Notes: a model not told the origin generated them from the letters alone. A DNA stretch of 64,000 nt from Patescibacteria group bacterium (GCA_016861245.1 BOKZ01000001.1:551006-615005); one strand, 5' to 3'; counted from the stretch's first letter, positions 5,818 through 22,538 are shown. Translations and numbers: made by a program.

Positions 5818-5828
5818 ACTATCAACTA

Positions 5829-6242
5829 ATGCCAACAATCAATCAGTTAATTAGGCGCCCACGAAAACAGATTAAGGTGAAATCAAAATCACCAGCGATG
5901 CATCGTGGATTTAATAGTCTCAAAAACCGACCGGTCGAAATTACTAAAGGCCGGCCGTTTCTTCGTGGTGTTTGTACGAAAGTTACCACCACAACCCCTA
6001 AAAAACCGAACTCAGCCTTGCGAAAAATTGCTCGTGTTCGCTTAACCAGCGGCCAAGAAGTTACTGCTTACATTCCAGGAATCAAGCACAACCTTCAAGA
6101 GCACTCGTTGGTACTAATCCGTGGTGGTCGTGTTAAAGATTTGCCTGGTGTGAAATACCATATCGTTCGCGGTGTCTTAAACGCCGAAGGCGTTGAAAAC
6201 CGCAAACAAGGTCGCAGTAAGTACGGAGCTAAGAAAAAGTAA
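5829..6242 (+). CDS. rpsL: 30S ribosomal protein S12
   Basis: [13 protein letters not shown]... 137 aa; canonical position after rpoC. Confidence 0.95.
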
Positions 6243-6715
6243 TGCGTGGACGAAGTAAAATCAAAAAACCAGCCCTCGTTCTTGATCCAAAATATCAAGA
6301 TGTCTTGATCTCGAAACTCATAAATAAAGTGATGTGGGGCGGCAAAAAGACTACAGCTCAAGGTATTGTTTACAGCGCCCTAGAGCGATTAGCCGAAGAA
6401 CAGCAAACCGAACCACGCACTGTGCTGCGAGATATTATCGATAAAGCCGCTCCAATTTTGGAAGTTCGTTCTCGTCGTGTTGGCGGCGCAACCTACCAGG
6501 TTCCAGTTGAAGTTAAGCCAAGCCGTAAAAATGTGTTGGTAATCCGCTGGCTGTTAGAAGTTGCTCGCAAGCAGCAGGGAAAATCGATGGAAGAGCTGTT
6601 GTATCAAGAGATGAAAAACATTCTTGAGAATACTGGCTCAGTTATGAAAAAGCGCGAAGACTTACACAAAATGGCCGAAGCCAACCGAGCATTCGCTCAC
6701 TTCGCTCGCTACTAA
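6242..6715 (+). CDS. rpsG: 30S ribosomal protein S7
   Basis: 157 aa, S7 N-terminal signature; start overlaps rpsL stop. Confidence 0.95.
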   Translation: MRGRSKIKKPALVLDPKYQDVLISKLINKVMWGGKKTTAQGIVYSALERLAEEQQTEPRTVLRDIIDKAAPILEVRSRRVGGATYQVPVEVKPSRKNVLVIRWLLEVARKQQGKSMEELLYQEMKNILENTGSVMKKREDLHKMAEANRAFAHFARY

Positions 6716-6880
6716 ATGAAAATGAAAACGATCACAGCTATTCTATTGCTAGTAGTGGAGTTTATGCTCTTTTTTATCGCCGTTGAACCGCTTTGGGCAA
6801 AGGTAGTTGCAATAATCCTGCTCGGGATAGTCATCTTCCTAGCCGTCACCGACAAAAGCGAAAATAAGTTAAATCAGTAA
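6716..6880 (+). CDS. small hydrophobic protein (54 aa, two predicted TM helices) between rpsG and fusA
   Basis: ATG immediately after rpsG TAA; MKMKTITAILLLVVEFMLFFIAVEPLWAKVVAIILLGIVIFLAVTDKSENKLNQ; absent from ORF track because <60 aa; fusA RBS follows. Confidence 0.35.
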   Translation: MKMKTITAILLLVVEFMLFFIAVEPLWAKVVAIILLGIVIFLAVTDKSENKLNQ

Positions 6881-6889
6881 GGGAGATAC

Positions 6890-8980
6890 ATGGCACGACA
6901 ATATCCACTCGAGCGCGTCCGTAATATCGGCATTATCGCTCACATCGACGCCGGTAAAACTACTGTTTCAGAGCGTATTCTGTTTTACACCGGTAAAAAC
7001 TACAAAATCGGCGAAGTGCATGAGGGTGCGGCCACGATGGACTGGATGGAACAAGAGCAAGAGCGCGGTATCACTATTACCGCCGCGGCTACTACTTGTT
7101 TTTGGAAAGATAACTCAATCAACATTATCGACACGCCGGGTCACATCGATTTTACTATCGAAGTTCAGCGCTCACTACGCGTGCTAGACGGTGCTGTTAC
7201 CGTTTTCGACGGCGTTGCGGGTGTAGAAGCGCAAAGCGAAACTGTTTGGCGACAAGCCGACAAGTACAAAGTTCCGCGAATTTGCTTTGTTAATAAACTC
7301 GATCGTATCGGCGCCGATTTTAAATTTGTCGTTAAAACGATCCAAGATCGTTTAGGCGCTAAAACCGCTGTGATTCAACTACCGATCGGTCAAGAAGACC
7401 AACTTAAAGGGGTGGTAGATTTACTCGAAAATAAAGCCGTTGTCTGGAAAGATGATTTAGGTAAGGATCCGATCGTCGAAGACATCCCGGCGGATATGAA
7501 AGACGAAGTCGAGGAGTATCGAAGTAAGCTCATCGAGCAGATTGCTGAAACAGACGAAGTACTTCTCGAAAAGTATTTTGCCGGCGAAGAGCTAACGGTA
7601 GCCGAGTTAAAGGCGGCGCTGCGAAAAGCTGTGATAGCTGTTCAAGTTTTCCCAGTTTTAGCTGGTTCGGCGCTTAAAAACAAAGGCGTTCAAACGATGC
7701 TTGATGCGGTTATCGACTACCTACCGAGTCCGCTCGACGTCCCGGCGCCGCACGGTACCGATGTTAAAGACCCAGAGAAAGTTATTGAGCGAAAAGTCGA
7801 CGACTCCGAGCCGTTCACAGCCCTGGCGTTTAAAGTTGCAACCGACCCGTTTGTTGGCTCGCTAACATTCTTCCGCGTTTATGCCGGCAAAATTACTGCC
7901 GGTTCGTATGTATTAAATAGTTCCAAAGGCGAGAAAGAGCGCGTTGGTCGCATTGTTCGTCTTCACGCTAACTCACGCGAAGACGTTACCGAAGTTTACG
8001 CCGGCGAAATCGCCGCCGCGGTTGGCTTGAAGAACTCAACAACAGGAGACACGCTTTGCGCCGAGAACGCTCCGATTATTCTCGAGCGAATTAACGTTCC
8101 GGAACCAGTTATTAAAATGTCGATCGAGCCAAAAACCAAGGCCGATCAAGAAAAAATGGGCGTGGCGCTACAACGCTTAGCTGCCGAGGACCCGACTCTT
8201 CGCTTAAGCCAAGACGAGACAACTAACCAAACCTTGATCGAAGGTATGGGCGAGCTTCACTTGGATATTATTGTCGATCGCATGCGACGTGAGTTTGGTG
8301 TTGAAGCTACGAAAGGTCAGCCGCAGGTTGCCTTCAAAGAAGCGATTACCCGAGTCGTTAAACAAGAAGGTAAGTACGTTAAACAAACCGGTGGTCGCGG
8401 TCAGTACGGCCACGTCTGGCTCGAGATCGAACCGCAAGAGCGCGGTAAGGGCTTTGAGTTTGTGAATAAAGTTGTCGGTGGCGCGATCCCACGCGAGTTT
8501 ATTTCTTCTGTCGAAAAAGGCGTTAAAGACTCTGTTTCCAAAGGTGTTATCGCCGGGTATCCGCTCGTTGACGTTAAAGTTACCGTTTACGATGGTTCGT
8601 ACCACGACGTCGACTCTTCAGACGTCGCGTTCCAAATCGCTGCTTCGATGGCGATGAAAGACGGCGTCAAAGCCGCCGGCCCGGTTCTACTTGAGCCAGT
8701 TATGAAAGTCGAAGTTACAACTCCAGAAGAGTTCTTTGGCTCGATCGTCGGCGATCTTAATAGTCGCCGTGGCCGCATTATGGGCTCTGAAGACCGCGGC
8801 AACTCTCGAGTAGTTGATGCAATGATTCCGCTCGCTGAGATGTTTGGTTACATCACCGATCTACGCGGCATGAGCCAAGGCCGAGCCAGCTTCACAATGG
8901 AATTTGACCATTACGAAGAGGTTCCACGCAATATCGCCGAGGGAATAATTGGCAAATCTGGTGCTAAAGCCGCTGCGTAA
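6890..8980 (+). CDS. fusA: elongation factor G
   Basis: 696 aa; [10 protein letters not shown]1 motif; RBS GGGAGA upstream. Confidence 0.96.
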
Positions 8981-8989
8981 CCACTGCCC

Positions 8990-9019
8990 TTGACCGGGAT
9001 ATGGTTTAAGCAGTAAAAT
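8990..9019 (+). promoter_or_regulatory. candidate sigma70 promoter for tuf (TTGACC-18-TAAAAT)
   Basis: -35/-10 hexamers read directly in fusA-tuf spacer. Confidence 0.3.
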
Positions 9020-9079
9020 GTATCAGAAACTAACTAATAATAAAAACATAAATATAAGGTTTAAGTAAAAGGAGTACGC

Positions 9080-10261
9080 ATGGCAGCAACATTCGAACGC
9101 ACAAAGCCGCACGTCAACGTTGGTACCATCGGTCACGTCGACCACGGTAAAACTACGTTAACGGCAGCTATCACAAACACACTCGCCGACAAGGGTTGGG
9201 CAGAGAAGAAGGCAGTCGATCAGATCGACAACGCCCCAGAGGAAAAGCAGCGCGGTATTACTATCGCGACGTATCACGTTGAGTACGAGTCAGAGAAACG
9301 ACACTACGCTCACGTCGACTGTCCGGGACACGCCGACTACGTTAAGAACATGATTACCGGTGCCGCTCAAATGGACGCCGCTATTCTCGTGGTGTCTGCT
9401 CCAGACGGTCCGATGCCACAAACTCGTGAGCACATTCTGCTTGCGAAGCAGGTTGGCGTTCCGTACATTGTTGTTTTCTTAAACAAGTGCGACCAAGTTT
9501 CTGATCCAGATCTTCTCGAGCTCGTTGAAGAAGAAGTTCGCGATCTTTTAAACAAGTACGAGTACCCAGGCAAAGACACACCAATTATTAAGGGCTCAGC
9601 TCTTAAGGCTATCGAAGGCGACGCCGACGCTAAGAAAGCAATCTTCGATCTTATCGAAGCGCTCGACTCTTACGTTCCAGAGCCAGTTCGCGAAACCGAC
9701 AAACCTTTCTTAATGCCAGTTGAAGACGTCTTCTCAATCAAGGGACGCGGCACAGTTGTTACCGGTCGTGTTGAGCGCGGTACCGTTAAAGTTGGTGAAG
9801 AAGTTGAAGTTGTCGGATTGAATGACACTAAGAAAACAGTTGTTACCGGAGTAGAAATGTTCCGCAAGCAGCTCGATTCTGGTCAAGCTGGCGATAACGT
9901 TGGTCTTCTTGTTCGTGGCTTAGAGCGCACAGATGTTGAGCGCGGCCAGGTTCTTTGTAAGCCAGGTTCGATTACTCCACACACCGAGTTCGAAGCTGAG
10001 TGTTACATCCTTAAAAAGGAAGAAGGCGGACGACACACACCGTTCACCAAGGGTTACAAGCCTCAGTTCTACTTCCGAACCACTGATGTGACCGGAGAAG
10101 TTGAGCTTCCAGGCGACGCCGAGATGGTTGTCCCAGGCGACACCACAACCTTCAAAGTTAAACTCATCCAGCCAATCGCGATGGAAGAGAAGCTCCGCTT
10201 CGCTATCCGCGAAGGTGGTAAGACGGTTGGTGCCGGAATTGTCACCAAAATTATCAAATAA
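9080..10261 (+). CDS. tuf: elongation factor Tu
   Basis: 393 aa; [18 protein letters not shown]; RBS AAAGGAG. Confidence 0.97.
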
Positions 10262-10283
10262 GTAGGGAAGGAATTGTACTTTA

Positions 10284-10616
10284 ATGGCCCAAAAGACCGC
10301 TCGCGAAGCTGCCAAATCCAGTATCCGCATCAAGCTTAAAGCGTACGATTACAGAGTAATTGATCGTTCCGCCAAGAAAATTATCGAGGCGGCCGAGCGG
10401 ACCGGTGCCATTATCGCCGGACCTATTCCGTTACCAACCGAGAAATCGATGGTAACGGTCAATCGCTCCACGTTTGTTCACAAGGATGCTCGTGAACAGT
10501 TCGAAATCCGTATTCACAAACGCATCATCGACGTCTTGGATCCAAATCCAAAAACCCTTGATGCCTTGATGAACCTCGATCTTCCAGCTGGTGTCGACAT
10601 CGAAATCAAGACATAA
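10284..10616 (+). CDS. rpsJ: 30S ribosomal protein S10
   Basis: 110 aa; IRIKLKAYD... S10 signature. Confidence 0.95.
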
Positions 10617-10641
10617 CAAGATTGATCTGAAACGCAAAAAG

Positions 10642-10665
10642 TCCGCTCTGGTGAGCGGGCTTTTT
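10642..10665 (+). terminator. intrinsic terminator after rpsJ
   Basis: hairpin TCCGCTC-TGGT-GAGCGGG followed by CTTTTTGT. Confidence 0.55.
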
Positions 10666-10702
10666 GTAATATAAACCATAAAAGTAGTAAAATACTGAGG
10701 AA

Positions 10703-13213
10703 ATGAAGGAAGCAAAGTCGCGAATAAAAATAAACAAACTGCTTGAACAAGCGGGCTGGCGATTTTTTGATAATGAAAAAGGACAAGCAAACATTTTGCT
10801 TGAACCGAATGTAAAACTTACCCAAAAAGATATTGACGCTTTTGGCGAGGATTTTGAATGTACCAAAGGCGGATTTATTGATTTTCTACTGCTTGATGAG
10901 CGAGGATTTCCATTTGTCGTTTTGGAAGCGAAAAAAGAGGAAAAAGACCCGCTCGACGGCAAGGAACAAGCGCGCCGCTATGCTAAATCTCAAAATGCCC
11001 GCTTTGTTTTGCTTTCAAACGGCAATCTTCACTATTTTTGGGATTTAGAGCGAGGCAATCCGGAAATTATCACAGAATTTCCGACACAAGAATCACTCTT
11101 GCACCGCTTGGAATTTACGCCGGACAACAAACGCCTCGCCGACAACAAGGTTGAAGAGGATTACATTGCCACGACGCAAAATCCAAATTTCAAAGATGAT
11201 CCTCGTTACCAAGATGAAGCGAAAAGAGCGCAATTTCTCTACGACGAGGGTTTGCGCATTTTGCGTCCGTATCAGCTTAAAGCTATCCAAGCCCTGCAAA
11301 GAAGTGCGGAAGCCGGAAACGACCGTTTTCTTTTTGAAATGGCAACTGGCACAGGCAAAACACTTGTATCTGGTGCCGTCATCAAACTATTTTTACGAAC
11401 CGGAAGTGCAAAAAGGATTTTGTTTTTGGTGGATCGCTTGGAACTTGAAGATCAGGCATACAAAAATTTCGTCCGTTACCTTAAAAACGACTACACGGCT
11501 GTTGTCTACAAGCAAAATCGCGATGATTGGAAAAAAGCGGACATCGTTATTTCAACCGTTCAAAGTCTTGCCTCGCAAGCCAAATACAAGAAACTTTTTT
11601 CGCCGACAGATTTTGATCTTATTATTTCCGACGAAGCGCACCGCTCAATCAGCGGAAACAGCCGCGCTGTCTTTGAATATTTTGTTGGCTATAAACTCGG
11701 ACTTACTGCAACGCCAAAAGATTATCTAAAAAATGTTGATCCGCAAAAACTTTCGTCAAAAGACCCGCGAGCGTGGGAGCGCAGACAACTTTTGGACACT
11801 TACACAACCTTTGGCTGTCCGAGCGGCGAACCAACATTCAGATACACTCTGCTTGATGGAGTAAAAGATGGCTACCTCATCAATCCTATCGCTGTTGACG
11901 CGCGCACCGACATCACAACAGAGCTTCTTTCGGAAAAGGGTTATGCCGTTATGGTGGAAAACGAGGAAGGCGAAGAAACCGAAGAAACTTTTTTCCAACG
12001 CGATTTTGAGAAAAAATTCTTTTCAGACAAAACGAATCAGGTGTTTTGCAAATCCATTGTTGAAAACGCCTTGAAAGACCCGATAAGCGGCGAGATGGGT
12101 AAAACGCTTATTTTTTGCGTGAGCCAAAAACACGCTTCAAAAATTACACAAACCTTAAACCAGATGGCGCACCAAGTATGGCCAGACAAATATAATTCTG
12201 ATTTTGCCGTTCAAATTACCTCAAACATTCAGGATTCCCAGCAAATGACGATCAATTTCGCCAACAATAATCTCAACGGACACACGAAATTTTTACCCGG
12301 CTACAAATCAAGCAAAACAAGGGTATGCGTTACCGTCGGCATGATGACGACCGGCTATGATTGTGAAGATATTTTGAACCTTGCCCTACTGCGTCCCGTC
12401 TTTTCGCCAACGGATTTTGTTCAGATGAAAGGACGCGGCACTCGCAAGTTCTTTTTTGAATACAAAAATGGAGACGGCGAAGTGCGAAAAGTAAATAAAG
12501 ATAAATTTAAGTTTTTCGATTTCTTCGCCAACTTTGAATACTTTGAAGAAAAGTTTGATTACGACGAGGCACTTCGCCTGCCGATTATCAAAAAGGGTGG
12601 AACCGGCGAGGGCGAAGGAGTGGGCGTTAATATTGATGAATTTGAAATTTTCGATCCCGATAAAATCAAGCAGCTGACCGAGATACCAATCGGCACCGAA
12701 GGAATGAAGGTTGACCGCAAGTTGTTTGAAGAAGCGAGAAAGAAAATCCAGAATGACGAACAAGTAAAAGAAGCAGTTAATCAAGAGCAATGGGAAAAAG
12801 CGGTAAAAATCTTGCGTGACAAATACGAAGACAAACCGCAATTATTTCTGAATCTTGAAAAAATACGCAAAAGCGAAAACCTTGACCGCCGTTTGTCGTG
12901 GCGTGAATTTTTGGAGCGGGTATTCGGCTTGATTGACGCTTTCAAATCCAAAGATGAAAAACTAGAAGAAGAAGTTGAGAAGTTTATCTCAATCTACAAA
13001 CCCGAAAGTAAATATGTGCCGTATATCAGAAATTACTTGAAGGCGTATGTTGCAGATGATCGTTTCCGCGAGATTATAAACAGCAAACATTTTGCCGAGC
13101 TGAATGTGTATCCGGGATTTTCCATGCAGGAATTTAAGGCACTCAACGGCTGGCGCGATACCGTGCCGGAATATGTAAAAGATTATGTGCCAGTCAATCA
13201 ATACATGAAATAA
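10703..13213 (+). CDS. hsdR: type I restriction enzyme R subunit (N-terminal PD-(D/E)xK nuclease + SF2 DEAH helicase)
   Basis: 836 aa; FIDFLLLDERGFPFVVLEAKK nuclease core; helicase motifs EMATGTGKT (I), ISDEAHRS (II), LTATP (III), QMKGRGTR (VI); tightly followed by hsdM. Confidence 0.85.
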   Translation: MKEAKSRIKINKLLEQAGWRFFDNEKGQANILLEPNVKLTQKDIDAFGEDFECTKGGFIDFLLLDERGFPFVVLEAKKEEKDPLDGKEQARRYAKSQNARFVLLSNGNLHYFWDLERGNPEIITEFPTQESLLHRLEFTPDNKRLADNKVEEDYIATTQNPNFKDDPRYQDEAKRAQFLYDEGLRILRPYQLKAIQALQRSAEAGNDRFLFEMATGTGKTLVSGAVIKLFLRTGSAKRILFLVDRLELEDQAYKNFVRYLKNDYTAVVYKQNRDDWKKADIVISTVQSLASQAKYKKLFSPTDFDLIISDEAHRSISGNSRAVFEYFVGYKLGLTATPKDYLKNVDPQKLSSKDPRAWERRQLLDTYTTFGCPSGEPTFRYTLLDGVKDGYLINPIAVDARTDITTELLSEKGYAVMVENEEGEETEETFFQRDFEKKFFSDKTNQVFCKSIVENALKDPISGEMGKTLIFCVSQKHASKITQTLNQMAHQVWPDKYNSDFAVQITSNIQDSQQMTINFANNNLNGHTKFLPGYKSSKTRVCVTVGMMTTGYDCEDILNLALLRPVFSPTDFVQMKGRGTRKFFFEYKNGDGEVRKVNKDKFKFFDFFANFEYFEEKFDYDEALRLPIIKKGGTGEGEGVGVNIDEFEIFDPDKIKQLTEIPIGTEGMKVDRKLFEEARKKIQNDEQVKEAVNQEQWEKAVKILRDKYEDKPQLFLNLEKIRKSENLDRRLSWREFLERVFGLIDAFKSKDEKLEEEVEKFISIYKPESKYVPYIRNYLKAYVADDRFREIINSKHFAELNVYPGFSMQEFKALNGWRDTVPEYVKDYVPVNQYMK

Positions 13214-13215
13214 CT

Positions 13216-15111
13216 ATGCTTGATCAACTCACAAAACGAAAAATTGACTCGGCCCGGCAAATTCTTGTCGGCAAAGTGCCTGACCCAAAGGCGCAAGTGG
13301 AGCAGATCACCACCGCGCTGGTTTACAAGTTCATGGATGATATGGACAAGGAATCGCAGGAGCTTGGCGGACAAACGCGATTTTTTGCAAACGGTTTTGA
13401 AAAATACAGCTGGACCAAACTCTTGGACAAACGGCTTTCCGGTGCCGAACGGCTTGACCTGTATGTGCAGGCCATTACGAATATGTCCAAGAATCCGCAC
13501 ATCCCCCAGCTTTTCAAAGATATTTTTAAGGGCGCGGCGTTGCCCTATAACGACGCTCAAACATTAAATTTGTTTCTGAAAGAAATTGAAGGATTTACTT
13601 TTGACCACAGCGAGGATTTGGGCGACGCCTATGAATACCTGCTGAATGTCGTCGGCACATCGGGGGAAGCCGGACAATTTCGCACGCCGCGCCACATCAT
13701 TGATTTTATCGTGGAAGTTGTTGCGCCAAAGAAAAATGAAACTATTTTAGACCCTGCTTGTGGCACGGCCGGATTTTTGATTTCCGCTTACAAACATATT
13801 TTACGCCAGCACGACGGCAAGCACGACCAAACGGGCGAGCCGACGAGCGCGGAAAAACGCCTCTCACCGGAAGAAAAGCAAAAGATGATGAGCAATTTTG
13901 TGGGCTACGATATTGATCCGGGAATGATGAGAATTGCCATCGTGAATATGTATTTGCACCATTTCCCCAATCCGAAAATATACGAATACGACACGCTGAC
14001 GTATGAGGATCGCTGGGACGATACCTTTGACGTCATTCTCGCCAATCCGCCGTTTATGACACCAAAGGGCGGGATTCGTCCCCACAAGCGTTTTTCCGTG
14101 CAAGCCACGCGCAGTGAAGTGTTGTTCGTTGATTATATTTTGGAGCACCTCAACATCAAAGGACGAGCCGGTATTATTGTCCCCGAAGGAGTAATTTTCA
14201 GAAATGATTCGGCATATAAGGAATTGCGGAAGAAATTGGTTGAAGACGGTTTGTATGCCGTTGTTTCCTTGCCGCAAGGTGTTTTTGCCAAACCCGGCGG
14301 CAAAGGAAATGTAAAAACGAGTATTCTCTTTTTTGATAATCAGCTTGCCAAAAAGAGCAATGAAATCCTGTTCGTAAAAGTAGAGAACGACGGCTTTGAT
14401 CTCGGCGCACAACGGCGAAAGATTGATAAAGATGACCTGCCGGAAGCTTTGGCTGTTTTGGATGCGTGGAAGAATGGCAAGAAATACGAGAGCGGCCTCG
14501 CTCTTTGGATAAAAAAAGAAAAAATCTCTGAAAGTGGAAATTACAGATTATCAGGCGAGTTTTATCGGGAAAATGTCAAAAGATTGCACCAGAAATGGCC
14601 GATGGTGGAATTGGGACAAGTTTTGGATTACGAACAGCCGACAAAATATATTGTTGAATCAGTTGACTACGATGACAAATATACTATTCCAGTTTTGACG
14701 GCGGGCAAGACATTTATTTTGGGATATACGAACGAAAAAAACGGGATATTCCCCCAAGAAAAATTGCCGGTGATTATTTTTGACGATTTCACTACTGCCT
14801 CAAAGTTTGTTGATTTCCCGTTCAAAGTAAAATCGTCAGCAATGAAGATTTTACTTGCGGATAAAAGTAAGACAAATATCAAGTTCCTTTTTCACTCAAT
14901 GCAGAGAATTGCTTTTACCGTCAACGAACACAAACGATATTGGATTTCCGAATACTCCAAAATAAAAATCCCGCTTCCTCCTTTGGACGTTCAAAACGAA
15001 ATTGTGGAGCAAATTGAAACAAAGGAAAATTCCATCAAGCACGCCAAAGAAATTATCAAAAATCTAGAGAGAGAGAGAGACGCTATTTTGGTCAGTCGCT
15101 TAGAAAATTAA
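13216..15111 (+). CDS. hsdM: type I R-M N6-adenine methyltransferase fused in frame to a half specificity subunit (HsdM-TRD1-conserved region)
   Basis: 631 aa; res 1-452 HsdM (FRTPRHII, LDPACGTAGFL motif I, LANPPF motif IV, C-terminal ISESGNYRLSGEFY signature); res 460-631 typical HsdS TRD start WPMVELGQVL... and conserved helix LPPLDVQNEIVEQIE...LERER. Confidence 0.85.
   Translation: MLDQLTKRKIDSARQILVGKVPDPKAQVEQITTALVYKFMDDMDKESQELGGQTRFFANGFEKYSWTKLLDKRLSGAERLDLYVQAITNMSKNPHIPQLFKDIFKGAALPYNDAQTLNLFLKEIEGFTFDHSEDLGDAYEYLLNVVGTSGEAGQFRTPRHIIDFIVEVVAPKKNETILDPACGTAGFLISAYKHILRQHDGKHDQTGEPTSAEKRLSPEEKQKMMSNFVGYDIDPGMMRIAIVNMYLHHFPNPKIYEYDTLTYEDRWDDTFDVILANPPFMTPKGGIRPHKRFSVQATRSEVLFVDYILEHLNIKGRAGIIVPEGVIFRNDSAYKELRKKLVEDGLYAVVSLPQGVFAKPGGKGNVKTSILFFDNQLAKKSNEILFVKVENDGFDLGAQRRKIDKDDLPEALAVLDAWKNGKKYESGLALWIKKEKISESGNYRLSGEFYRENVKRLHQKWPMVELGQVLDYEQPTKYIVESVDYDDKYTIPVLTAGKTFILGYTNEKNGIFPQEKLPVIIFDDFTTASKFVDFPFKVKSSAMKILLADKSKTNIKFLFHSMQRIAFTVNEHKRYWISEYSKIKIPLPPLDVQNEIVEQIETKENSIKHAKEIIKNLERERDAILVSRLEN
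15066..15080 (+). repeat. (AG)7 dinucleotide simple-sequence repeat inside the 3' end of hsdM-S, at the TRD1/TRD2 junction
   Basis: agagagagagagaga read directly; encodes LERER in frame 1; downstream hsdS' frame opens immediately after it. Confidence 0.9.
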
Positions 15112-15140
15112 AAGATGTTGAATGGGTAAAACTTGGCGAC

Positions 15141-15671
15141 GTGTGCAAAACAACATCGGGCGGTACGCCTCTAAAGCACAAGCGAGAATATTACGAAAAT
15201 GGCACAATTCCGTGGCTAAAGAGTGGTGAGGTTGATCAAGGTTTGATCTACAAATCAGAAGAAATGATAACAGAAAAAGGACTAAAAAATTCATCAGCAA
15301 AGATTTTCCCCGTAAATACTGTTTTGGTGGCAATGTATGGAGCAACGGCAGGAAAGGTTGGATTACTTAAATTTGAATCAACAACCAATCAGGCGGTCTG
15401 TGGGATTTTGCCGAACGACAAATTTATTCCAGAATTTTTGTATATGTATTTGAGAACAAAGACAGGCGAAATGGTGAAATTAAGCGGTGGTGGCGCACAG
15501 CCAAATATTTCCCAAACAATTATAAAGGCACTTGAAATTCCACTACCATCGATTGAAATCCAAAAACAGCTCGTCGCCGAAGCGGAAAAGGAAGAAGAAA
15601 TCATCGCCTCTAACCGCCGCCTCGTTGACCTTATGCAGCAAAAAATTGACGAGGCCCTATCTGATATTTAG
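15141..15671 (+). CDS. hsdS: type I R-M specificity subunit, second half (TRD2 + distal conserved region)
   Basis: GTG-start ORF in track; frame is actually open from 15069 (..LRKLKDVEWVKLGDVCKTTSGGTP = canonical HsdS TRD start) with no in-frame ATG; C-terminal LPSIEIQKQLVAEAEKEEEII... conserved coiled coil. Confidence 0.7.
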   Translation: MCKTTSGGTPLKHKREYYENGTIPWLKSGEVDQGLIYKSEEMITEKGLKNSSAKIFPVNTVLVAMYGATAGKVGLLKFESTTNQAVCGILPNDKFIPEFLYMYLRTKTGEMVKLSGGGAQPNISQTIIKALEIPLPSIEIQKQLVAEAEKEEEIIASNRRLVDLMQQKIDEALSDI

Positions 15672-15673
15672 CT

Positions 15674-18004
15674 ATGTTTGAGAAAGTATCAAAACTTAAA
15701 AAATTCGGGATATTCCGCGATTTCTCTTGGGGCGCAGACACACCAGACCTCGCGCGCTTTAACTTGATTTACGGCTGGAATAAGAGCGGGAAAACAACTT
15801 TTTCGCGCGCTTTTGTCGCTTGCGAGAAGAAAACAACGGAATTTGTCCAGTATCCCAAGGACGGCGAATTTGAAATAAAAACGAACGGCGGTTCAGCAAT
15901 TAACCATTCAAATTGCCATGGATGCACTCGGCAAATAAAGGTTTTTAATAAAGATTTTATTGAGGACAATGTTTCTTTTGATCCCACGAATCCAAGCCAA
16001 CCAATCGTCTATGTCAGCGAAGAAGACATCGAAAGCAGTAAAAAGTTGAAAGAGTTACAGGGTAAGGTTACGCCTTTGTCAGAAAAATACGAATCGGCCC
16101 AAAAGGATCGTCAAAAAAGTGAAAAAGCAGAAGATGATTTTAGAAAATCAACCGCCCGCACAATAAAAGATATTGTTGGCAATTTGAAAGTTAATGACAA
16201 ATACCGAGATTACGACAAAGGAAGCGTTAAAACAACGATTGAAAACGTCGGGATTGATAAATTTTCCAAACTTTCAGATGAAGAATTTGAAAAGAAAAAG
16301 AAATTTATAGGCGGCGATCCCCTTAACAAGCAAACCTCACCCCAACAATATGGGTTCTCTTTTTCTTATGACGGGAAAAGTTTGAAAAGTTTTTCCGAAG
16401 TATCTAGCGAGATTTCAAATATCCTCAAACGAAAAATTGTTGCCGAGACCATTGACCGCTTCAAGGACGATCCGGAACTAAATAAGTGGGCGCAACATGG
16501 TTTTGAATTGCACAAAACAAAAGATGAAAAGAAAAAATGCCTGTTTTGCCAAAATGAGTTTTCGGCCGGTTTCCTTAATTCGTTGTCAAAGCATTTCAGT
16601 AATGATTATGAGAAGCTACAAGGCGAGATAAGCTCTTTTATATCGGGCCTAGAAAATTTGAAGCGGGAAAAAATTACGGAAAAGAATCAAGGGCTTTATT
16701 CAGATTTCCAAGACAAATATAAAAATAGTGCAAAGGAGCTGAACAAAATTATCAACGAATTGATTGCGTGGGTGGATGAAGCGGTAAAAAAGCTGAAAGA
16801 AAAGTACGACAATCCGCTCTCGGATGTAAGTGATCCCGAATCGCCAAATGATTTTCCCGCTCAATACGATAAGAAAATTGACGAAATAAACGCGGTAATA
16901 AAAGAACACAATACCAAAGTAGATAATCACGAGCAGGAAGTCGGAAAAGCAAAGGAAGAATTGGAAAAACACCTTATTGCGGTTGCAATAGACGAGCAGG
17001 AATATTCAAAGTTAAAATCAGAGTTTGATAAAAGTATTGAAGCGGAAAAAGAGGCGAAAAAAGCAGTTGATGATAATACTCAAGAGATTTCCAAGCTGGA
17101 AAAAGAAACCTCAAACATAGGAAAGGCGGTTCAGAAAATAAATAAGCACCTCGAGGAATTTTTTGGTAGAAAGGAAATTCTGCTTGAACTGGACGATTCG
17201 AAAAAGGGCTACATTATCAAGCGCGACGGAGATGTGGCGCACAATCTTAGCGAAGGCGAAAAGAACGCTATCGCCTTTTCATACTTTATCGTCAAGACAC
17301 AGGAAAAAGGATTTAAGATCAAGGAAGGAATAATCGTAATTGACGATCCGATTTCCAGCTTTGATTCAAACTTTATTTACCACTGCTTTTCTCTGATAAA
17401 AAATCATTTCAAAGACGCAAAGCAGTTAATCGTTTCCACGCATAACTTTGAATTTTTCAATCTCGTCAAAGATTGGTTTGAGCAGAAAAATCGTAAAGTT
17501 GAAAGCGATAATAAGAAAATCGCTAATGAAGCAGACAAGAAGCCGGTTCCATGCGAGTTTTTCATGGTTGAAAATATCATCGAAAATGATAAACGATGTG
17601 CTTCGATTGTTCCGCTTGAAGAAACTTTGCGAAAATTCAAATCAGAATATCACTTCTTGTTTTCAAGATTGAATAAGTTTATTACAGAAGGTACGCCGGA
17701 CTACGCCGATTTTTACACTATCGGAAATATTGCGCGACGGTTTTTAGAGATTTACATAAATTTCAAAATACCGACAACAGGTGATTTGAAAAGTAGGGTT
17801 GACCAGCTTGATACAAAAACCGTCAGCGAAACTGAAAAAGATAAGGTGTATAAACTTATTCAAGAATTTTCGCACGGACTAGATCCCGCAAGCACAATCG
17901 AGCACAAAGATAAAAGTGAGATTCAAAATGCGATTAAAGTTTTAATGAAAATGGTTGAGGAATCAGACAAGAAGCATTTTGAATCTTTGCAAAGCAATCT
18001 ATGA
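15674..18004 (+). CDS. RloC-like ABC/Rad50-type ATPase with coiled-coil zinc hook and C-terminal putative anticodon-nuclease domain
   Basis: 776 aa; Walker A GWNKSGKTT, signature LSEGEK, Walker B IIVIDDPISSFD, H-loop VSTHN; about 400-aa K/E-rich coiled-coil insert with CxxC at res 81-84 and 289-292; after H-loop a 190-aa domain with ARRFLE (R-x3-E) and downstream SHG; 2 bp after hsdS'. Confidence 0.5.
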   Translation: MFEKVSKLKKFGIFRDFSWGADTPDLARFNLIYGWNKSGKTTFSRAFVACEKKTTEFVQYPKDGEFEIKTNGGSAINHSNCHGCTRQIKVFNKDFIEDNVSFDPTNPSQPIVYVSEEDIESSKKLKELQGKVTPLSEKYESAQKDRQKSEKAEDDFRKSTARTIKDIVGNLKVNDKYRDYDKGSVKTTIENVGIDKFSKLSDEEFEKKKKFIGGDPLNKQTSPQQYGFSFSYDGKSLKSFSEVSSEISNILKRKIVAETIDRFKDDPELNKWAQHGFELHKTKDEKKKCLFCQNEFSAGFLNSLSKHFSNDYEKLQGEISSFISGLENLKREKITEKNQGLYSDFQDKYKNSAKELNKIINELIAWVDEAVKKLKEKYDNPLSDVSDPESPNDFPAQYDKKIDEINAVIKEHNTKVDNHEQEVGKAKEELEKHLIAVAIDEQEYSKLKSEFDKSIEAEKEAKKAVDDNTQEISKLEKETSNIGKAVQKINKHLEEFFGRKEILLELDDSKKGYIIKRDGDVAHNLSEGEKNAIAFSYFIVKTQEKGFKIKEGIIVIDDPISSFDSNFIYHCFSLIKNHFKDAKQLIVSTHNFEFFNLVKDWFEQKNRKVESDNKKIANEADKKPVPCEFFMVENIIENDKRCASIVPLEETLRKFKSEYHFLFSRLNKFITEGTPDYADFYTIGNIARRFLEIYINFKIPTTGDLKSRVDQLDTKTVSETEKDKVYKLIQEFSHGLDPASTIEHKDKSEIQNAIKVLMKMVEESDKKHFESLQSNL

Positions 18005-18068
18005 CCTCCACCACCCAATTTGAGGTCCCGCCGTCCGAAAAAATCGCTAGTTTTGCTAGACTGAAACA

Positions 18069-18224
18069 ATGAATTGGGGTTGGTTTACCTCGAGCGGAGT
18101 CGAGTGGATGATAGTATTTGCAATTCTGGCTGTCGGGTTAGGAATAATTCTGGCCATGGCGATGAAAAATCCCGCACCAAATCTCTTTTCACCCAACCAA
18201 CCAAAGTACCTACCGTTTAGATAC
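18069..18224 (+). CDS. possible small membrane protein (51 aa)
   Basis: MNWGWFTSSGVEWMIVFAILAVGLGIILAMAM...; one TM helix; no strong RBS. Confidence 0.2.
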
Positions 18225-18324
18225 ATCAACCCTCAACACATCTAAGGCACCATATACGCTATAACTCATATTCTGTTTTTAACTAATTAGCATATGCTTT
18301 TTATTTACTGGTACAATAAGCCAA

Positions 18325-19008
18325 ATGTTCAAACTCTCCCCATCGGATTTTGCGTATATGTACCAGGACTGCAAGCTTTGCTATTGCCTGAAAATTAAGC
18401 ACAAGGTCAAACACCCAAGCATGCCGATGCCGGGGGTATTTTCGACGATGAACTCGATTATGCAAGGGGATATCGTCGGTAAAGATCTGCGCGACATCTC
18501 CCCAGATCTGCCGGTAGGGAAAGTGGTTAAACAAGAGGGTTTTGTAAAATCCAAGATGATCGACGGCACGTCGGTGTATATCGGCGGCAAATACGATCTT
18601 CTAGTGGAATTGCCGGATGGGAGCTATATGATTGTGGATTTGAAGATCTCCAAGCCCAGCGACGAAAAGAGCGATATGTACAAAAGCCAGCTTTGGAGCT
18701 ACAAATACGCCCTGGAAAATCCGGAGAGCGGCGAGCCGGTAAATATCTCAAAATTAGCCTTGCTAATTTTTTATCCGGAGTCTGTGGTATTCGAAAACGG
18801 TGTGGCGAAACTTGCTTTTCCGCCACAATGGATAGAAGTAGAATATAATCACAACGAATTTTTAGAATTTATGAAAGAAGTGGATACGTTGCTGGCCGGC
18901 CCGTTACCTGCCGAAAACGAGAATTGCCAGTGGTGTAAGTATCGTCACACCGGCGAACTGCTTACACATAGCACTTCAGAAAACGTGGCTGAAACAAGCC
19001 CATTTTAA
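18325..19008 (+). CDS. PD-(D/E)xK nuclease of the RecB/Cas4-like family with a 4-Cys (Fe-S-type) cluster
   Basis: 227 aa; N-terminal CKLCYC, motif II GKYDLLVEL, motif III IVDLKISK, QxxxY (KSQLWSYKY), C-terminal CQWCKY. Confidence 0.45.
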   Translation: MFKLSPSDFAYMYQDCKLCYCLKIKHKVKHPSMPMPGVFSTMNSIMQGDIVGKDLRDISPDLPVGKVVKQEGFVKSKMIDGTSVYIGGKYDLLVELPDGSYMIVDLKISKPSDEKSDMYKSQLWSYKYALENPESGEPVNISKLALLIFYPESVVFENGVAKLAFPPQWIEVEYNHNEFLEFMKEVDTLLAGPLPAENENCQWCKYRHTGELLTHSTSENVAETSPF

Positions 19009-19032
19009 AAATTATGTTATAAAAACACGGAA

Positions 19033-19434
19033 ATGAGTAAGCCATCTAGTCCAGTAAGTAGTGTAACAGAGGAAATTCAAAGTCGGCTTCACAGGTTACT
19101 ACACGAAGCAGCGCAACAAAGTTCAGACAGTAGCTTCCAACAGTGCGTGAATAATCACTTAATTAATTACATTCAAAGTCGAAGCGGTTGGAAATCAATT
19201 GGAGAAAACGGTTTTTCCTACAAAAATGGGATCAAAGTTTTTGTTGATTCTTATCGATCTTCAAACGCTTTCGAGAATGTAGTGAATATAGGGAAAGAGA
19301 TACTGCGCGCTGAGCTTGAGGATTTGATTAAAGAATCGGCCAACAAAGGTGATGAAATAAGACGTGCGCTAAAAGAATTCGAGAGTAAAGATTGGGATTT
19401 TGCGTTTATTAGGCGGAAAATAAGCGAAGAATGA
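19033..19434 (+). CDS. hypothetical protein (133 aa)
   Basis: ORF with no recognisable motif, same strand and close spacing to neighbours. Confidence 0.45.
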   Translation: MSKPSSPVSSVTEEIQSRLHRLLHEAAQQSSDSSFQQCVNNHLINYIQSRSGWKSIGENGFSYKNGIKVFVDSYRSSNAFENVVNIGKEILRAELEDLIKESANKGDEIRRALKEFESKDWDFAFIRRKISEE

Positions 19435-19464
19435 GTCGTTCGGGTATGTTCCTGTAAGCAGACG

Positions 19465-20718
19465 ATGAAAATACTTCCAAACCGTAAACAATTATTATCA
19501 ACGGTGGTGAAAACTCTGTTAGCGCTGTCTGCCGTAGTTGCTGTGTTAATTTCTTTTACGTATTCGATAGTTTATACCGTTATCGGTGCGCTAATAGTTG
19601 TTGGATATATTGTGTATCGAAATTTCAACTTTAAACCCATCCAGTTCAATTTTTATAAAGTAAACGGTTGGTTTGCTAGAAACTTATTGTTTGTAATCCC
19701 GATAATCGTAGTGTTACTACTGGCTAACATCTCGTTGTTTGTGTTTGGGTACCTGAAATCGAATAAAGAGGTTGTAGTTTGTACTGAAGCAGACGTAAAA
19801 AACGCCGCTAAATCCGTTGTACTAATTGAGGGAGAAGACGGGACAGGGTCGGGATTTTTTGTTGATAGTAATTACATTGTAACTAATAACCATGTAATTG
19901 ATCACAATACGATTACAAAAATTCAGTCTGATAACGGCGATATAACTGTCGGCTCAAGGGTGGTCGCTACTGATTCGTTGAGAGACATCGCCTTAATTGA
20001 GGTTGTGAACTTTTTGGAAGTACCGAAACTAACACAATCTGAAAAACCAGCTGACGTTCTAAACGAGGTCTACGCGATTGGCTATCCGTTTGGTCGAAAT
20101 TTAACTATTTCAAGAGGTATAGTATCGGCAATAACTAAAGATGATTACGACGATCGCCAGTACATTCAAACAGATGCCGCCATAATCCCAGGCAATTCAG
20201 GCGGACCGCTCGTGAATAAATGCGGGGAGGTGATTGGTATGAATACTCAAACACTACGAGGTCAAGAAAATCTAGGATACGCAATTGAGTACTCGCAGTT
20301 AAGTACAAGAATTGCCAGCATGTTAGATGCTGCAAAATCGGCAACAATTCAGGAAATCGAGCAGAATTACCCATCTGAGCAAGCTGAGGTTGTAGCGAAA
20401 TACTACTCAACACTGAGCGCCGGCCAGCTAGAAACTGCATACGACTACTATTCTTTTGCACGGAAAGCAAAGCTGCCGTTTGAGAACTGGAAAACTGGGC
20501 TGGAACGGACGATATTTATCCGGTTGGTATCTGTTGAGCAGACGCAGAAAAATAACACTATAAGAGTACATTTTTACGCAACCGAGACTTCTAAAGAAGA
20601 TGCCTGGGAATGGAAAACGGGAGAATTTGAGGGAACTTGGACGTTACTGCGTGAAGACGGGTTGTGGAAAATGAACGAATCCAATATTAAGGATATAACG
20701 AAACCAAACGCGACGTAA
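19465..20718 (+). CDS. membrane-anchored trypsin-like (S1/DegP-family) serine protease with C-terminal NTF2/SnoaL-like domain
   Basis: 417 aa; 3 N-terminal TM helices; catalytic triad contexts TNNHVIDH (His), DIALIEV (Asp), GNSGGPL (Ser). Confidence 0.75.
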   Translation: MKILPNRKQLLSTVVKTLLALSAVVAVLISFTYSIVYTVIGALIVVGYIVYRNFNFKPIQFNFYKVNGWFARNLLFVIPIIVVLLLANISLFVFGYLKSNKEVVVCTEADVKNAAKSVVLIEGEDGTGSGFFVDSNYIVTNNHVIDHNTITKIQSDNGDITVGSRVVATDSLRDIALIEVVNFLEVPKLTQSEKPADVLNEVYAIGYPFGRNLTISRGIVSAITKDDYDDRQYIQTDAAIIPGNSGGPLVNKCGEVIGMNTQTLRGQENLGYAIEYSQLSTRIASMLDAAKSATIQEIEQNYPSEQAEVVAKYYSTLSAGQLETAYDYYSFARKAKLPFENWKTGLERTIFIRLVSVEQTQKNNTIRVHFYATETSKEDAWEWKTGEFEGTWTLLREDGLWKMNESNIKDITKPNAT

Positions 20719-20719
20719 T

Positions 20720-21357
20720 TCTTTAATATCTTGCCTGAAGATACTTCAAAGAGTATTATTTCCGTGTCCTGGCTTCGGTCAGGCGAATCCTACATGGAGG
20801 CACAAAAGATGAATGGTTCGAACGTTCTTGAACGCACTCACGCTGAGCCTAGCTCTTCGTTGGTGCGAGACATCTATTCGATTCAACCCGGGTCGACGGA
20901 ACTGCTCAACGAGGGGCAGGCCCGAAAGCGACTCACCGACACCCATACGATGCGAGCCCGAGAGCTCTGCCCTGCCCAGGGCAAGAGAGCGGCCGGTGGA
21001 TTCCTCCAGCGAATCTTCGGCTAACGGGCGACCAACGACGTGGGAGTTGTTCGTCGCTTTGAAGCGACAGTTCGAGAGACCGAAGAAACGTTTCCCGATG
21101 AATTTTCCGTGGGTTTGTGGATGTGGCAAAGCCGGCTTCCCCGGCTGTAAAGACCGCGAGCACTTCTGCGAGCGCGTCTATCTAGCACTACTCGACTACC
21201 ACCAACATCAGGAAACGAAATCCCGGAATCTCTGCTACTTCGTTGACGGCGGCGAACAGCTTCTGCGTGTCGACCAATTCAGTGCCAGGCGTATGCAGCT
21301 TCTCGAGGCAGACCTCGAGAAAGCTGAAACGATCTTGCGCCGAATGCTATCCGACAA
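20720..21357 (+). other. GC-rich, hairpin-dense block without a convincing ORF (candidate structured RNA or degraded foreign DNA); possible 89-aa Cys-rich ORF 21098..21367
   Basis: GC clearly higher than flanks; ORFs open in several frames on both strands with R/S-rich low-complexity translations; many local palindromes (GTTCGAAC, GAACGTTC, GCCCT-GCCC-AGGGC, AGCCGG-CTTCC-CCGGCT). Confidence 0.3.
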
Positions 21358-21385
21358 CCCCGCTTAACCACAGCGGGGCTTTTCT
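21358..21385 (+). terminator. intrinsic terminator
   Basis: CCCCGCT-TAACCAC-AGCGGGG followed by CTTTTCTT. Confidence 0.55.
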
Positions 21386-21421
21386 TGACAATAGAGCCTA
21401 AAGCACGTTGACTGTATAAAA

Positions 21422-22270
21422 ATGGGTGGAGGGAGAATGCACGAACAAATTAGGCCGCAGGCACACGTAGCGACGTGGGCGATCTCAGTATTAATGGTGA
21501 TATTAGCTGCGACGCTTGGCACAACTAACGATATTACCAATGCAACAGAAGTCTATACGGCTCCGGACGGTACGAAGAAATACTTTACGTACGAGGGGAG
21601 CGGCGGATTTAAGGCGCCAGACGCTTGTTTAAAACCGACGGCAGAGCAGCAGGTGCAAATTGATCAAATTACAGTACTCAAAAAAGAGTTATTGGTGTTA
21701 CAAGAGAAAGATACTTCGCAATTTACTACTGAAGAGAAAGCCGCTCACGAAGCCAAGATTCAGGAATTACTAACTAAAATTAAAACAGCGGCTGGTACCG
21801 TGTCGACAGTAAAACCAGGGCCGACCGCAGAATGTAAGGCAGCGGTGGTGGCCGGCAATATTAAACTAATGACTGCACAGCTAGAGCAAACAAAATCAAA
21901 ACTAATTGTGAGCGTGGACAATGTGAGCGCCAAAATAATAAAAGTTGAAGAAGCGATCGCAAAAATTAAGCCGACAACCGAGAATCAACCGATTCTAACT
22001 GCAATTACTGCTGATATTAACGCCGCAAAGCTTAACCTAGTCATCCTTTCCGATTTTCTAACCAAAACACAATCTCAAATGGAATCGTTTTTAACGCTTT
22101 CAAAAACCGATCCTAACAAAGCGTACGATTCAATTAGAACCTTTAGGGTTGGCGGAGATAATCTGAAGGCTACAAAGGCAAGCGAAGGAATAATTAGCGC
22201 GTTTACGAGCCTGAAAGCCAATATCGAGCGCTTAATCGAACTTACGGAGGGTAGTAATGGAAATATCTAA
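21422..22270 (+). CDS. hypothetical secreted/membrane-anchored coiled-coil protein
   Basis: 282 aa; N-terminal TM/signal segment VATWAISVLMVILAATLG; alternative ATG at 21437; GGAGGG nearby. Confidence 0.5.
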   Translation: MGGGRMHEQIRPQAHVATWAISVLMVILAATLGTTNDITNATEVYTAPDGTKKYFTYEGSGGFKAPDACLKPTAEQQVQIDQITVLKKELLVLQEKDTSQFTTEEKAAHEAKIQELLTKIKTAAGTVSTVKPGPTAECKAAVVAGNIKLMTAQLEQTKSKLIVSVDNVSAKIIKVEEAIAKIKPTTENQPILTAITADINAAKLNLVILSDFLTKTQSQMESFLTLSKTDPNKAYDSIRTFRVGGDNLKATKASEGIISAFTSLKANIERLIELTEGSNGNI

Positions 22271-22538
22271 TTCACCAGTACCGGCATCGCAGCCGCACTC
22301 AAAAGTCTGGTTAGTGGTGACGCTCGTAGTGTCAGTAGTTGCAGCAGGTTTAATTTGGTACTTCTTGTATCCGAAAGCAGAGGAGTTAAATACGCAGACG
22401 CCAGAGTCCCAAAAAACCGTCAAAAATGCTGTTGATGAGACGCTAGTTGCAGCAAAAAACGATCTGAATACCGTTAATGTCGAGGAGTTAAAAGTTGCGG
22501 TCGACGAGTTAAAATCCACCCTTGACGCTTTTGAATAA
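22257..22538 (+). CDS. small single-pass membrane protein (93 aa)
   Basis: RBS GGAGGG 6 nt upstream; TM LVVTLVVSVVAAGLIWYFL. Confidence 0.5.
   Translation: MEISNSPVPASQPHSKVWLVVTLVVSVVAAGLIWYFLYPKAEELNTQTPESQKTVKNAVDETLVAAKNDLNTVNVEELKVAVDELKSTLDAFE

Follow-up and report, generated by a model that had tools for sequence, protein, structure and literature searches.

The window analysed here, a stretch of 64,000 nucleotides (nt; GCA_016861245.1 BOKZ01000001.1:551006-615005), belongs to a Patescibacteria, or Candidate Phyla Radiation (CPR), genome of ~685 kb. On its plus strand, the genes rpoB' (partial)-rpoC-rpsL-rpsG-fusA-tuf-rpsJ are followed by an interval of 16 kb and then by rplC-rplD-rplW-rplB onward. 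The interval opens with a cassette that combines a type I-like restriction-modification (R-M) system with an RloC-like ATPase. For comparison, relatives were defined as contigs encoding an identical S10 protein (>23 contigs), whose core DNA is 94-98% identical to that of the window, and were sorted into ten arrangements of the locus (L001-L010). Among species-representative genomes, the S10 of a Patescibacteria metagenome-assembled genome (MAG) comes closest (94%), with Berkelbacteria and Saccharibacteria next at 76-77%, and a scan of metagenome contigs for S10 returned one clade member only (L097).

The locus is probably best read as a separation of rpsJ and rplC that is ancestral to the clade, with a defence hotspot behind rpsJ, whose present occupant would be a phase-variable R-M system (an EcoAI-like HsdR and a fused HsdM-HsdS) plus RloC, and whose cargo would be exchanged by recombination in the flanks. 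Its components are of known kinds, namely the hotspot flanked by core genes, the type I-like R-M system with an hsdS switched by a simple-sequence repeat (SSR), and the restriction-linked RloC. As a defence island it is of an ordinary type, but its location is unusual, with population-level turnover in a genome of ~0.7 Mb.

The restriction-modification and RloC cassette

Four co-oriented, presumably expressed open reading frames (ORFs) occupy positions 10703-18004, with intergenic gaps of 2, 29 and 2 nt (Table 1). The original prediction had placed such a packed unit between an rpsJ ending at 10616 and an rplC starting at 26590, and both the coordinates and the gene calls are confirmed. The intrinsic terminator called right after rpsJ is borne out by a hairpin with a free energy (dG) of -24.7 kcal/mol and a folding z-score of -6.9, and the promoter-like hexamers announced before rplC lie where they were claimed, being one of the two best sites that a consensus scan finds in 10200-27000. 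The predicted site before hsdR recurs in L001 and L002, which carry the same R-M cassette.

HsdR holds the two parts expected of a type I restriction subunit: an N-terminal PD-(D/E)xK nuclease (D..EAK), matched by HSDR_N_2, and an SF2 translocase motor, matched by ResIII/DEAD, with GTGKT at residue 216 and DEAH at residue 310. In sequence it resembles the EcoAI family, although its 240 bits against the NCBIfam EcoAI/FtnUII model stay below the equivalog cut-off of 550, so that it is not assigned to a subfamily. The next ORF encodes a gamma-class N6-adenine methyltransferase (DPACGTAG; NPPF at residue 277), with the S-adenosylmethionine (AdoMet) motif and the NPPF expected of a type I HsdM, continued by a first target recognition domain (TRD1, residues 455-622) and a central helix; PADLOC matches it with both MTase_I (3e-91) and Specificity_I (1e-34). 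The second domain (TRD2) lies in the ORF that follows, and the two TRDs expected of an HsdS are joined in an allele with six AG units (see below). While type I systems have separate R, M and S subunits, here M and S form one polypeptide, as they do throughout this family, the fused M-S measuring 790-840 amino acids (aa) in most homologues. The system is thus predicted to work like a type I system, but with a fused M-S architecture: an enzyme of the R2M2S type would methylate host DNA and cut unmodified incoming DNA. Nothing usable on M-S fusions was found in the literature searched. Membership of the MADS systems was considered and rejected, since MAD2 and MAD5 were the top NCBIfam matches but reached 115 and 33 bits against cut-offs of 720 and 400.

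In another Patescibacteria lineage (L179, 1-5335), hsdR, an hsdM-S split by (AG)7 and an AAA_15/AAA_21 ATPase gene lie directly upstream of tuf-rpsJ-rplC, and the ribosomal gene block adjoins this R-M family in this second lineage too.

The last gene of the cassette, which starts 2 nt after the stop codon of the S-domain ORF, encodes an AAA_13 protein. By its published hallmarks, RloC has 658-897 aa (roughly double the length of PrrC) and carries ABC ATPase motifs, a helical insert whose central loop bears CX2C (the zinc hook), and a C-proximal R-X3-E-X36-52-H triad, in which a Ser often precedes the His (Davidov & Kaufmann 2008, PMC2610378). The window protein falls within this size range with its 776 aa (757-803 aa in homologues), and its ATPase motifs are G34..GK40T, LSEGE (525-529), DDP (557-559), S562/D564 and TH (589-590). 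The motif C289-L-F-C292 is a predicted zinc hook, and the triad reads R688-X3-E692-X41-S733-H734. Among 40 homologues of 51-90% identity, K40, CLFC, DDP, TH, R688 and SH never vary (40/40) and T41 and LSEGE hardly do, whereas position 692 is occupied by E in 34 homologues and by D in the other six. An AlphaFold model (pLDDT 80) has an ABC head, long helices (116-497) and a helical C-terminal domain, with the CX2C motif in a loop of low confidence flanked by helices 267-282 and 300-327; its best fold matches are the heads of SMC, Rad50 and Lamassu LmuB with their coiled coils. A sequence search of the PDB gave no solved relative, and JGI names the homologues 'wobble nucleotide-excising tRNase'. 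The original prediction spoke of an RloC-like ATPase; showing every published sequence hallmark (PMC2610378), the AAA_13 protein can be assigned to RloC on this basis. An identity as PrrC was discarded, as PrrC measures 341-416 aa and lacks the insert, and the PADLOC PrrC model covers residues 522-615 only, around the ABC signature (E 3e-9).

The rlo ('restriction-linked ORF') genes lie inside type I hsd loci of Campylobacter jejuni, RloC is known from Geobacillus kaustophilus, and its linkage to R-M genes is rare, with 8 cases in 72 (PMC2610378). The window protein shares with these the size class, the ABC motifs, the CX2C zinc hook in a helical insert, the R-X3-E-X41-(S)H triad, and the physical linkage to a type I R-M locus. 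It differs in its Patescibacteria host and in its partner with fused M and S, and it is known here from sequence. The adjacency of M-S and RloC is found in L092-L094 as well. Another related system is EcoprrI-PrrC (type Ic), in which an anticodon nuclease likewise lies in or beside a type I R-M locus as a back-up for when restriction is neutralised; PrrC, however, has neither coiled coil nor zinc hook, and rloC stands at the 3' end of its locus instead of between hsdS and hsdR. By analogy, RloC, whose translation would be coupled to that of the R-M genes, would serve as a back-up defence: if restriction fails or DNA is broken, its Rad50-like, zinc-hook-regulated ATPase would allow the C-terminal nuclease to excise the wobble nucleotide of tRNA, which would stop translation.

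Table 1. Features between rpsJ and rplC in the window (TRD, target recognition domain; L numbers denote arrangements found in relatives)
Feature	Position	Strand	Evidence or remark
rpsJ (S10)	10284-10616	+	Pfam Ribosomal_S10 E 1e-35; last gene of the rpsL-rpsG-fusA-tuf-rpsJ operon
Terminator hairpin after rpsJ	10634-10667	+	A-tract, 15-bp stem, U5; intrinsic, bidirectional-type
Promoter-like TTGTAA-18-TAAAAT before hsdR	10664-10693	+	Consensus scan, 9/12 matches; predicted
hsdR, 836 aa	10703-13213	+	Pfam ResIII, HSDR_N/HSDR_N_2; PADLOC REase_I 7e-57
hsdM-hsdS fusion, short form, 631 aa	13216-15111	+	Pfam N6_Mtase 4e-52, Methylase_S
(AG)7 simple-sequence repeat	15066-15079	+	Between TRD1 and TRD2; sets the frame
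TRD2 and distal conserved helix, 176-aa GTG ORF	15141-15671	+	Pfam Methylase_S 2e-25; PADLOC Specificity_I 9e-42
rloC, 776 aa	15674-18004	+	AAA_13 E 1.6e-133; PADLOC PDC-S06 1.4e-174 (candidate family)
Spacer after rloC	18005-18324 (320 nt)	+	98% identical in L001/L002, there behind a different module
Cas4-like PD-(D/E)xK nuclease gene, 227 aa	18325-19008	+	Pfam PDDEXK_1; cas4 models match weakly
Second-tier strain-variable genes	19033-23716	mixed	Presence/absence differs among L001-L009
Membrane-anchored trypsin/HtrA-like protease	19465-20718		Second tier
Putative ancestral gap core: cupin (+), msrA (+), 182-aa ORF (-), FabH-like (-)	23717-26297	mixed	Pfam
Intergenic region before rplC	26298-26589 (292 nt)	+	99% identical in L006, L008
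Promoter-like TTGACT-17-CATAAT before rplC	26509-26537		Consensus scan, 10/12 matches
rplC	26590-27171	+	Pfam Ribosomal_L3; heads the rplC-rplD-rplW-rplB... operon

Separation of rpsJ from rplC

Across 146 loci from other lineages, the distance between rpsJ and rplC has a median of ~95 nt and exceeds 1 kb in L029 and L103 only, while in L129 rplC is not found within 5.9 kb of rpsJ. The split is rare but not unique. No defence genes are recognisable in the gaps of these three loci, whose cargo is of other kinds: it runs from RNase H to MgsA in L029 (10334-15071), comprises Ig-domain surface proteins and an IS200-like transposase in L103 (10337-19850), and includes NUDIX in L129 (5228-11095).

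The original prediction held that the R-M/RloC cassette had recently been inserted into an intact rpsJ-rplC junction and had itself uncoupled rpsJ from the S10 operon. Such an event would agree with the adjacency of both genes in nearly all other lineages sampled, with the terminator after rpsJ and the promoter-like site before rplC, and with the AT-rich composition of the cassette. However, rpsJ and rplC are parted in all ten arrangements with identical S10, including L006 and L008, which are free of R-M genes, and also in the sister species L011 (S10 94%). The smallest gap, of 3.7 kb, is that of L008, where rpsJ is followed by a 184-aa ORF, cupin, msrA, an ORF and a FabH-like gene on the minus strand, and rplC; L006 has different small genes in its gap. 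Both R-M-free arrangements have two opposite-strand genes in the gap and share with the window the block 23717-26589, in which the coding DNA is 89-96% identical in L006 and 96-99% in L008. A terminator follows rpsJ in all five relatives that were read (L001, L003, L005, L006 and L008), with four distinct stem sequences. Because relatives without R-M have the split, the terminator and the nearly identical region upstream of rplC, the separation of the two genes, the termination after rpsJ and the separate start of rplC all appear to be ancestral to the clade, with only the cargo being recent or variable. The comparison of synteny in close relatives that had been suggested as a check therefore places the split before the cassette, and a recent insertion as the cause of the uncoupling, already contradicted by these relatives, is left with hardly any probability. 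More generally, a broken rpsJ-rplC junction need not stem from its present occupant.

The composition of the cassette had been put at 40% GC against 50% in its flanks. The direction of this contrast holds, but its size is smaller, with 41.1% in 10617-18004 against 48.3% in 1-10616 and 45.2% in 26590-64000; rloC alone has 37.7%. Similarly, the AGA-rich codon usage attributed to the cassette is seen, with AGA/AGG making up 17-26% of Arg codons against 0-11% in translation genes. As evidence of a foreign origin it is nevertheless weak, because ordinary genes of the window, such as secY (52795-54087), also reach 12-20%.

A loss of feedback through an L4/S10 leader had also been proposed as a consequence of the insertion, but does not apply here. 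The spacer between tuf and rpsJ measures 22 nt, which leaves no room for such a leader and is similarly tight in other Patescibacteria. A structured leader of the E. coli type (>100 nt) was not found before rpsJ, and Rfam revealed no ribosomal leader either in the window at gathering thresholds, where the only matches were three distant tRNAs, or in 26200-26700 in E-value mode. The region upstream of rplC is conserved better in L006 and L008 than the surrounding coding DNA (89-99%). It contains GC-rich hairpins, among them one at ~26461-26505 that resembles a terminator, has TTATTTT behind it and lies just 5' of the -35 hexamer. Its folding z-score is only -2.0, and this hairpin-bearing region might be an attenuator or a small RNA.

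Cyanobacteria and plastids have a str operon in which rps10 comes after tufA, apart from the rplC-led cluster. The window resembles this organisation in that rpsL-rpsG-fusA-tuf-rpsJ ends with rpsJ and the operon led by rplC would be transcribed separately. In contrast to cyanobacteria and plastids, both blocks here lie 16 kb apart on the same strand, and within the phylum, whose members normally have these genes side by side, only one small clade shows the split.

The variable defence slot behind rpsJ

The slot directly 3' of the rpsJ terminator is a population-level, strain-variable defence hotspot in one species-level population. In the ten arrangements it holds type I systems of three families, type II or type III-like systems, toxin-antitoxin genes, or nothing, with R-M and/or toxin-antitoxin genes in eight of them, and it is flanked by core genes. 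L001 and L002 have the same HsdR/M-S pair as the window and a different module in the place of rloC, and so does L010, whose locus is cut. Phd-type toxin-antitoxin pairs occur in L003, L004, L007 and L009: Phd and an 80-aa partner are found in L003 with an EcoEI-type type I system that has an SduA_C gene inside, Phd and its partner in L004 with EcoO109I, a Dcm methylase and a 1301-aa AAA_11/12 helicase, and in L009 with an N6_N4 methylase (N6_N4_Mtase) and a ResIII protein. In L005 and L007, type I systems of the HindI type are accompanied by additional genes and a DpnI-like ORF, while L006 and L008 have a slot free of R-M. At the same place, the sister species L011 has hsdM-NYN-hsdS-OLD-hsdR.

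The module that replaces rloC in L001 (15477-17186) and L002 (15479-17188) consists of ORFs of 100 aa, 70 aa (HNH-like), 263 aa (helix-turn-helix plus SocA_Panacea) and 133 aa. Layouts like those of prrC and rlo loci are seen in L011 (4825-12528), a type I locus with NYN and OLD-type AAA_15-TOPRIM genes between the hsd genes, and in the distant Patescibacteria contig L183 (2235-8992), where an AAA_15/AAA_21 gene is embedded among hsd genes.

On the left of the slot, DNA similar to the window ends with the stop codon of rpsJ (10616/7) or, in L005 and L008, just past the terminator (10667/8). On the right, L003, L004, L007 and L009 regain homology at 18323-18331, where the ATG of a Cas4-like nuclease gene lies. 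The corresponding points are 18008 for L001/L002, 20750 for L008 and 21385 for L005, and L006 has an initial homologous stretch (22478-23063) ahead of the continuous one from 23717. The segment 10617-23716 is a nested mosaic, in which the first 7.4 kb represent one of several interchangeable defence modules. The second tier of variable genes, beyond the nuclease, comprises ORFs of 133, 184, 282, 93, 115 (minus strand) and 185 aa and the protease. None of them matched a defence or mobility family in Pfam, PADLOC or PHROGs, and since PADLOC and PHROGs gave nothing convincing, no defence role is claimed for them.

Type I R-M on a genomic island has already been reported in Patescibacteria (PMC12455944), and the E. 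coli pan-genome offers examples of defence hotspots flanked by core genes (PMC10121019); the literature searched did not describe one at rpsJ/rplC. The slot shares with these cases its fixed position between conserved genes and its varying defence cargo in conspecifics (PMC10121019, PMC12455944), as well as the atypical composition and the nested module swaps. Unlike the known hotspots, it lies in the str/S10 ribosomal block of a ~0.7 Mb genome, has no recognisable mobility genes, and has the start codon of one nuclease gene as its distal boundary. Even CPR genomes of ~0.7 Mb thus keep a dedicated, fast-turnover slot for restriction systems, at the centre of the gene block that bacteria conserve most.

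The gene that bounds most arrangements distally encodes a PD-(D/E)xK nuclease with cysteines at positions 16, 19 and 21 (Cys16/19/21) and 201 and 204 (Cys201/204), from a family that is widespread in Patescibacteria; a scan of viral contigs with this protein gave no match. The precision of the boundary suggests another explanation, in which the nuclease gene, and not rpsJ, anchors the hotspot or has a functional link with it, the position beside rpsJ being an accident of this clade. R-M modules would then travel with the nuclease, or be selected beside it, for example because it degrades restricted DNA for repair or salvage. In agreement with this, four unrelated kinds of cargo end exactly at the nuclease ATG, the stop codons of their last genes overlapping it. 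Among six distant Patescibacteria homologues (L180-L185; 57-60% identity), two have a complete R-M system directly upstream, at 8 nt (L183) and 31 nt (L182), and two more (L180 and L181) have defence-like or mobile-like neighbours. L184 and L185, however, show nothing similar, and these six are a small sample that was not randomly chosen. Moreover, the L005 copy is highly diverged, and L006, L008 and L011 have no such gene here, yet L011 has an R-M system. An anchor on the nuclease is possible but doubtful.

A broader proposal, that across Patescibacteria this nuclease is the constant 3' partner of interchangeable R-M cassettes, with cargo joining at its start codon, is rather unlikely. If true, the nuclease would help to capture or exchange cassettes without a dedicated recombinase or, alternatively, would degrade the DNA cut after restriction, perhaps for nucleotide salvage in hosts unable to make nucleotides; in this clade, the platform would happen to sit in the ribosomal block, beside a very highly transcribed operon.

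The original prediction of a horizontally mobile type I R-M plus RloC-like unit between rpsJ and rplC is supported. At the sequence level, HsdR belongs to a cluster (≥90% identity) with members in MAGs labelled Bacteroidales, Anaerolineaceae and Parcubacteria, and RloC has homologues of 70-80% identity in other lineages, whose genomes measure 1.5-4.9 Mb, both of which would fit horizontal mobility. The lower GC content of the cassette and the recurrence of the M-S/RloC pair in L092-L094 are in line with mobility too. The usual marks of an integrative element (integrase or transposase, direct repeats, tRNA target) were not found in the window. Neither the variable segment of the window nor any of the ten loci has a Pfam domain of an integrase, resolvase or transposase, and ARAGORN finds no tRNA gene within 27 kb of the island, by which an island targeting a tRNA gene was ruled out. 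As no recombinase gene is recognisable, exchange of cargo through homologous recombination in the conserved flanks, after DNA uptake, is favoured.

An alternative mode of entry would be site-specific recombination by integrative elements that target the 3' part of rpsJ and supply a replacement for it, in the manner of tRNA islands. It finds its basis in decayed copies of rpsJ nt 205-333 that follow the cassette of Phd and its 80-aa partner in L003 (10883-10968), L004 (10989-11074), L007 (7655-7871) and L009 (3045-3258), accompanied by a copy of the terminator in L007 and L009, and in stacked remnants of the rpsJ stop-codon region in L004, L006 and L007. Against it stand the missing integrase, resolvase and transposase domains, the window itself, in which no rpsJ remnant or repeat was found, and the position of the R-M cargo, which is distal to the remnant in relatives, so that the duplication may concern the toxin-antitoxin cassette alone. 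Insertion of this kind is an unlikely explanation for the R-M cargo, and recombination in the flanks is retained. A reading of the rpsJ hairpin as a site similar to integron attC was dropped; only its A/U tracts are conserved, as expected of a bidirectional terminator.

Several observations weigh against the reading preferred here. All relatives are metagenome contigs, among which assembly chimeras are possible; the same junction classes recur in independent samples. The cross-phylum labels are on short MAG contigs and may be binning errors, and many of the small ORFs have no assignable function. Recombination in the flanks is argued only from the lack of mobility genes and, on its own, would not predict a right junction exactly at the nuclease ATG in four unrelated cargos, while the rpsJ 3' duplicates beside the Phd cassettes suggest that some insertions were targeted at the 3' end of rpsJ.

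The (AG)n tract and target specificity

The fused M-S gene and the downstream S-domain ORF were originally listed as two genes, hsdM::S and hsdS'. Both ORFs are real, but they do not stand as separate genes: together they are one M-S gene interrupted by a dinucleotide-repeat frameshift. The 631-aa form ends in an alternative frame past the AG tract, and TRD2 is in frame with hsdM-S only at six AG units, or at numbers differing from six by multiples of three. The deletion in silico of one AG from the window yields an uninterrupted ORF of 817 aa that runs M-TRD1-helix-TRD2-helix. The same states exist in nature, as the gene is split by (AG)7 in the window, L002 and L179, and encodes a single protein of 820 aa with (AG)6 in L001. 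L001 and L002, which come from different samples, have no mismatches over 7300 nt except for one AG unit, and this difference of a single unit is the signature of a hypermutable repeat. The L179 gene is from another organism and only 77% identical, and shows the same (AG)7 frameshift, while L092-L094 have a shorter tract, in frame. About one quarter of the 120 best homologues (54-100% identity) are short, with about 614-657 aa, most of them ending in the alternative-frame tail ...LERER-DAILxxRLEx; the remaining ones have ...LERER-RYFGQ... at this point and extend to ~790-840 aa. M-S homologues also show other tract lengths, and each of the three frames occurs among them.

The conserved (AG)n tract encodes ERER at the TRD1/TRD2 junction (homologues P0163-P0282).

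The features of phase-variable hsdS genes are a repeat unit that is not a multiple of three, at least five units in the case of dinucleotides, and a position between the TRDs (PMC7383803). The window has (AG)7 between its TRDs, and tract length varies between otherwise identical alleles. Genes for HsdS with SSRs have been listed, including some with AG[n] tracts in Mycoplasmataceae (Atack et al. 2019, PMC7383803), and in NgoAV the HsdS forms of full and of truncated length differ in specificity, the truncated form being active (PMC7383803). As in NgoAV and other SSR-containing hsdS, the length of a repeat between the TRDs decides here between a full and a truncated S, for which different specificities are expected. 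In contrast to NgoAV, S is fused to M, so the switch alters the whole M-S polypeptide, and the tract encodes the conserved ERER in the central helix of a widely diverged family from mostly uncultivated lineages. By this analogy, slippage of the tract would toggle M-S between the two-TRD form (AG6), which would read an asymmetric bipartite site, and the one-TRD form (AG7, as in the window), which should dimerise and read a symmetric site, and specificity would thus vary within the population. Domain swapping would add a second layer of specificity change, since the TRD2 of the window has no DNA homology to that of L001/L002.

The AG7 state could also be a plain loss-of-function allele, which counts against such a switch. 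In this case, the cassette would be decaying, with a frameshift that inactivates it and with R-M, and perhaps RloC, no longer functional here. The interrupted M-S gene, the lack of a strong ribosome-binding site ahead of the GTG at 15141, and the readiness with which small genomes lose genes would all agree with decay. On the other hand, hsdR, the 631-aa M-TRD1 ORF and rloC are full length and have all their catalytic motifs, and many diverged homologues likewise have a short form that ends in the same tail. In L177, from a genome of 2.8 Mb, the short form has no repeat and no TRD2 downstream, and this stable form indicates that a one-TRD architecture is viable in its own right. Together with the precedent of the active truncated HsdS of NgoAV (PMC7383803), these observations make decay improbable. 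For annotation, the locus is a reminder that where M-S and S genes of this widespread family look 'split', they are usually a single gene switched by a repeat. The locus also offers a natural allele series, differing in R-M type, in the back-up module (RloC or others) and in the AG tract (AG6 or AG7), which could be used to study DNA uptake versus defence in ultra-small, probably naturally competent episymbionts.

Outside the interval, a segment of ~154 nt between rpsG and fusA (6716-6868) is missing in most relatives and common only to L004, in whose copy an ORF of 52 aa is called.

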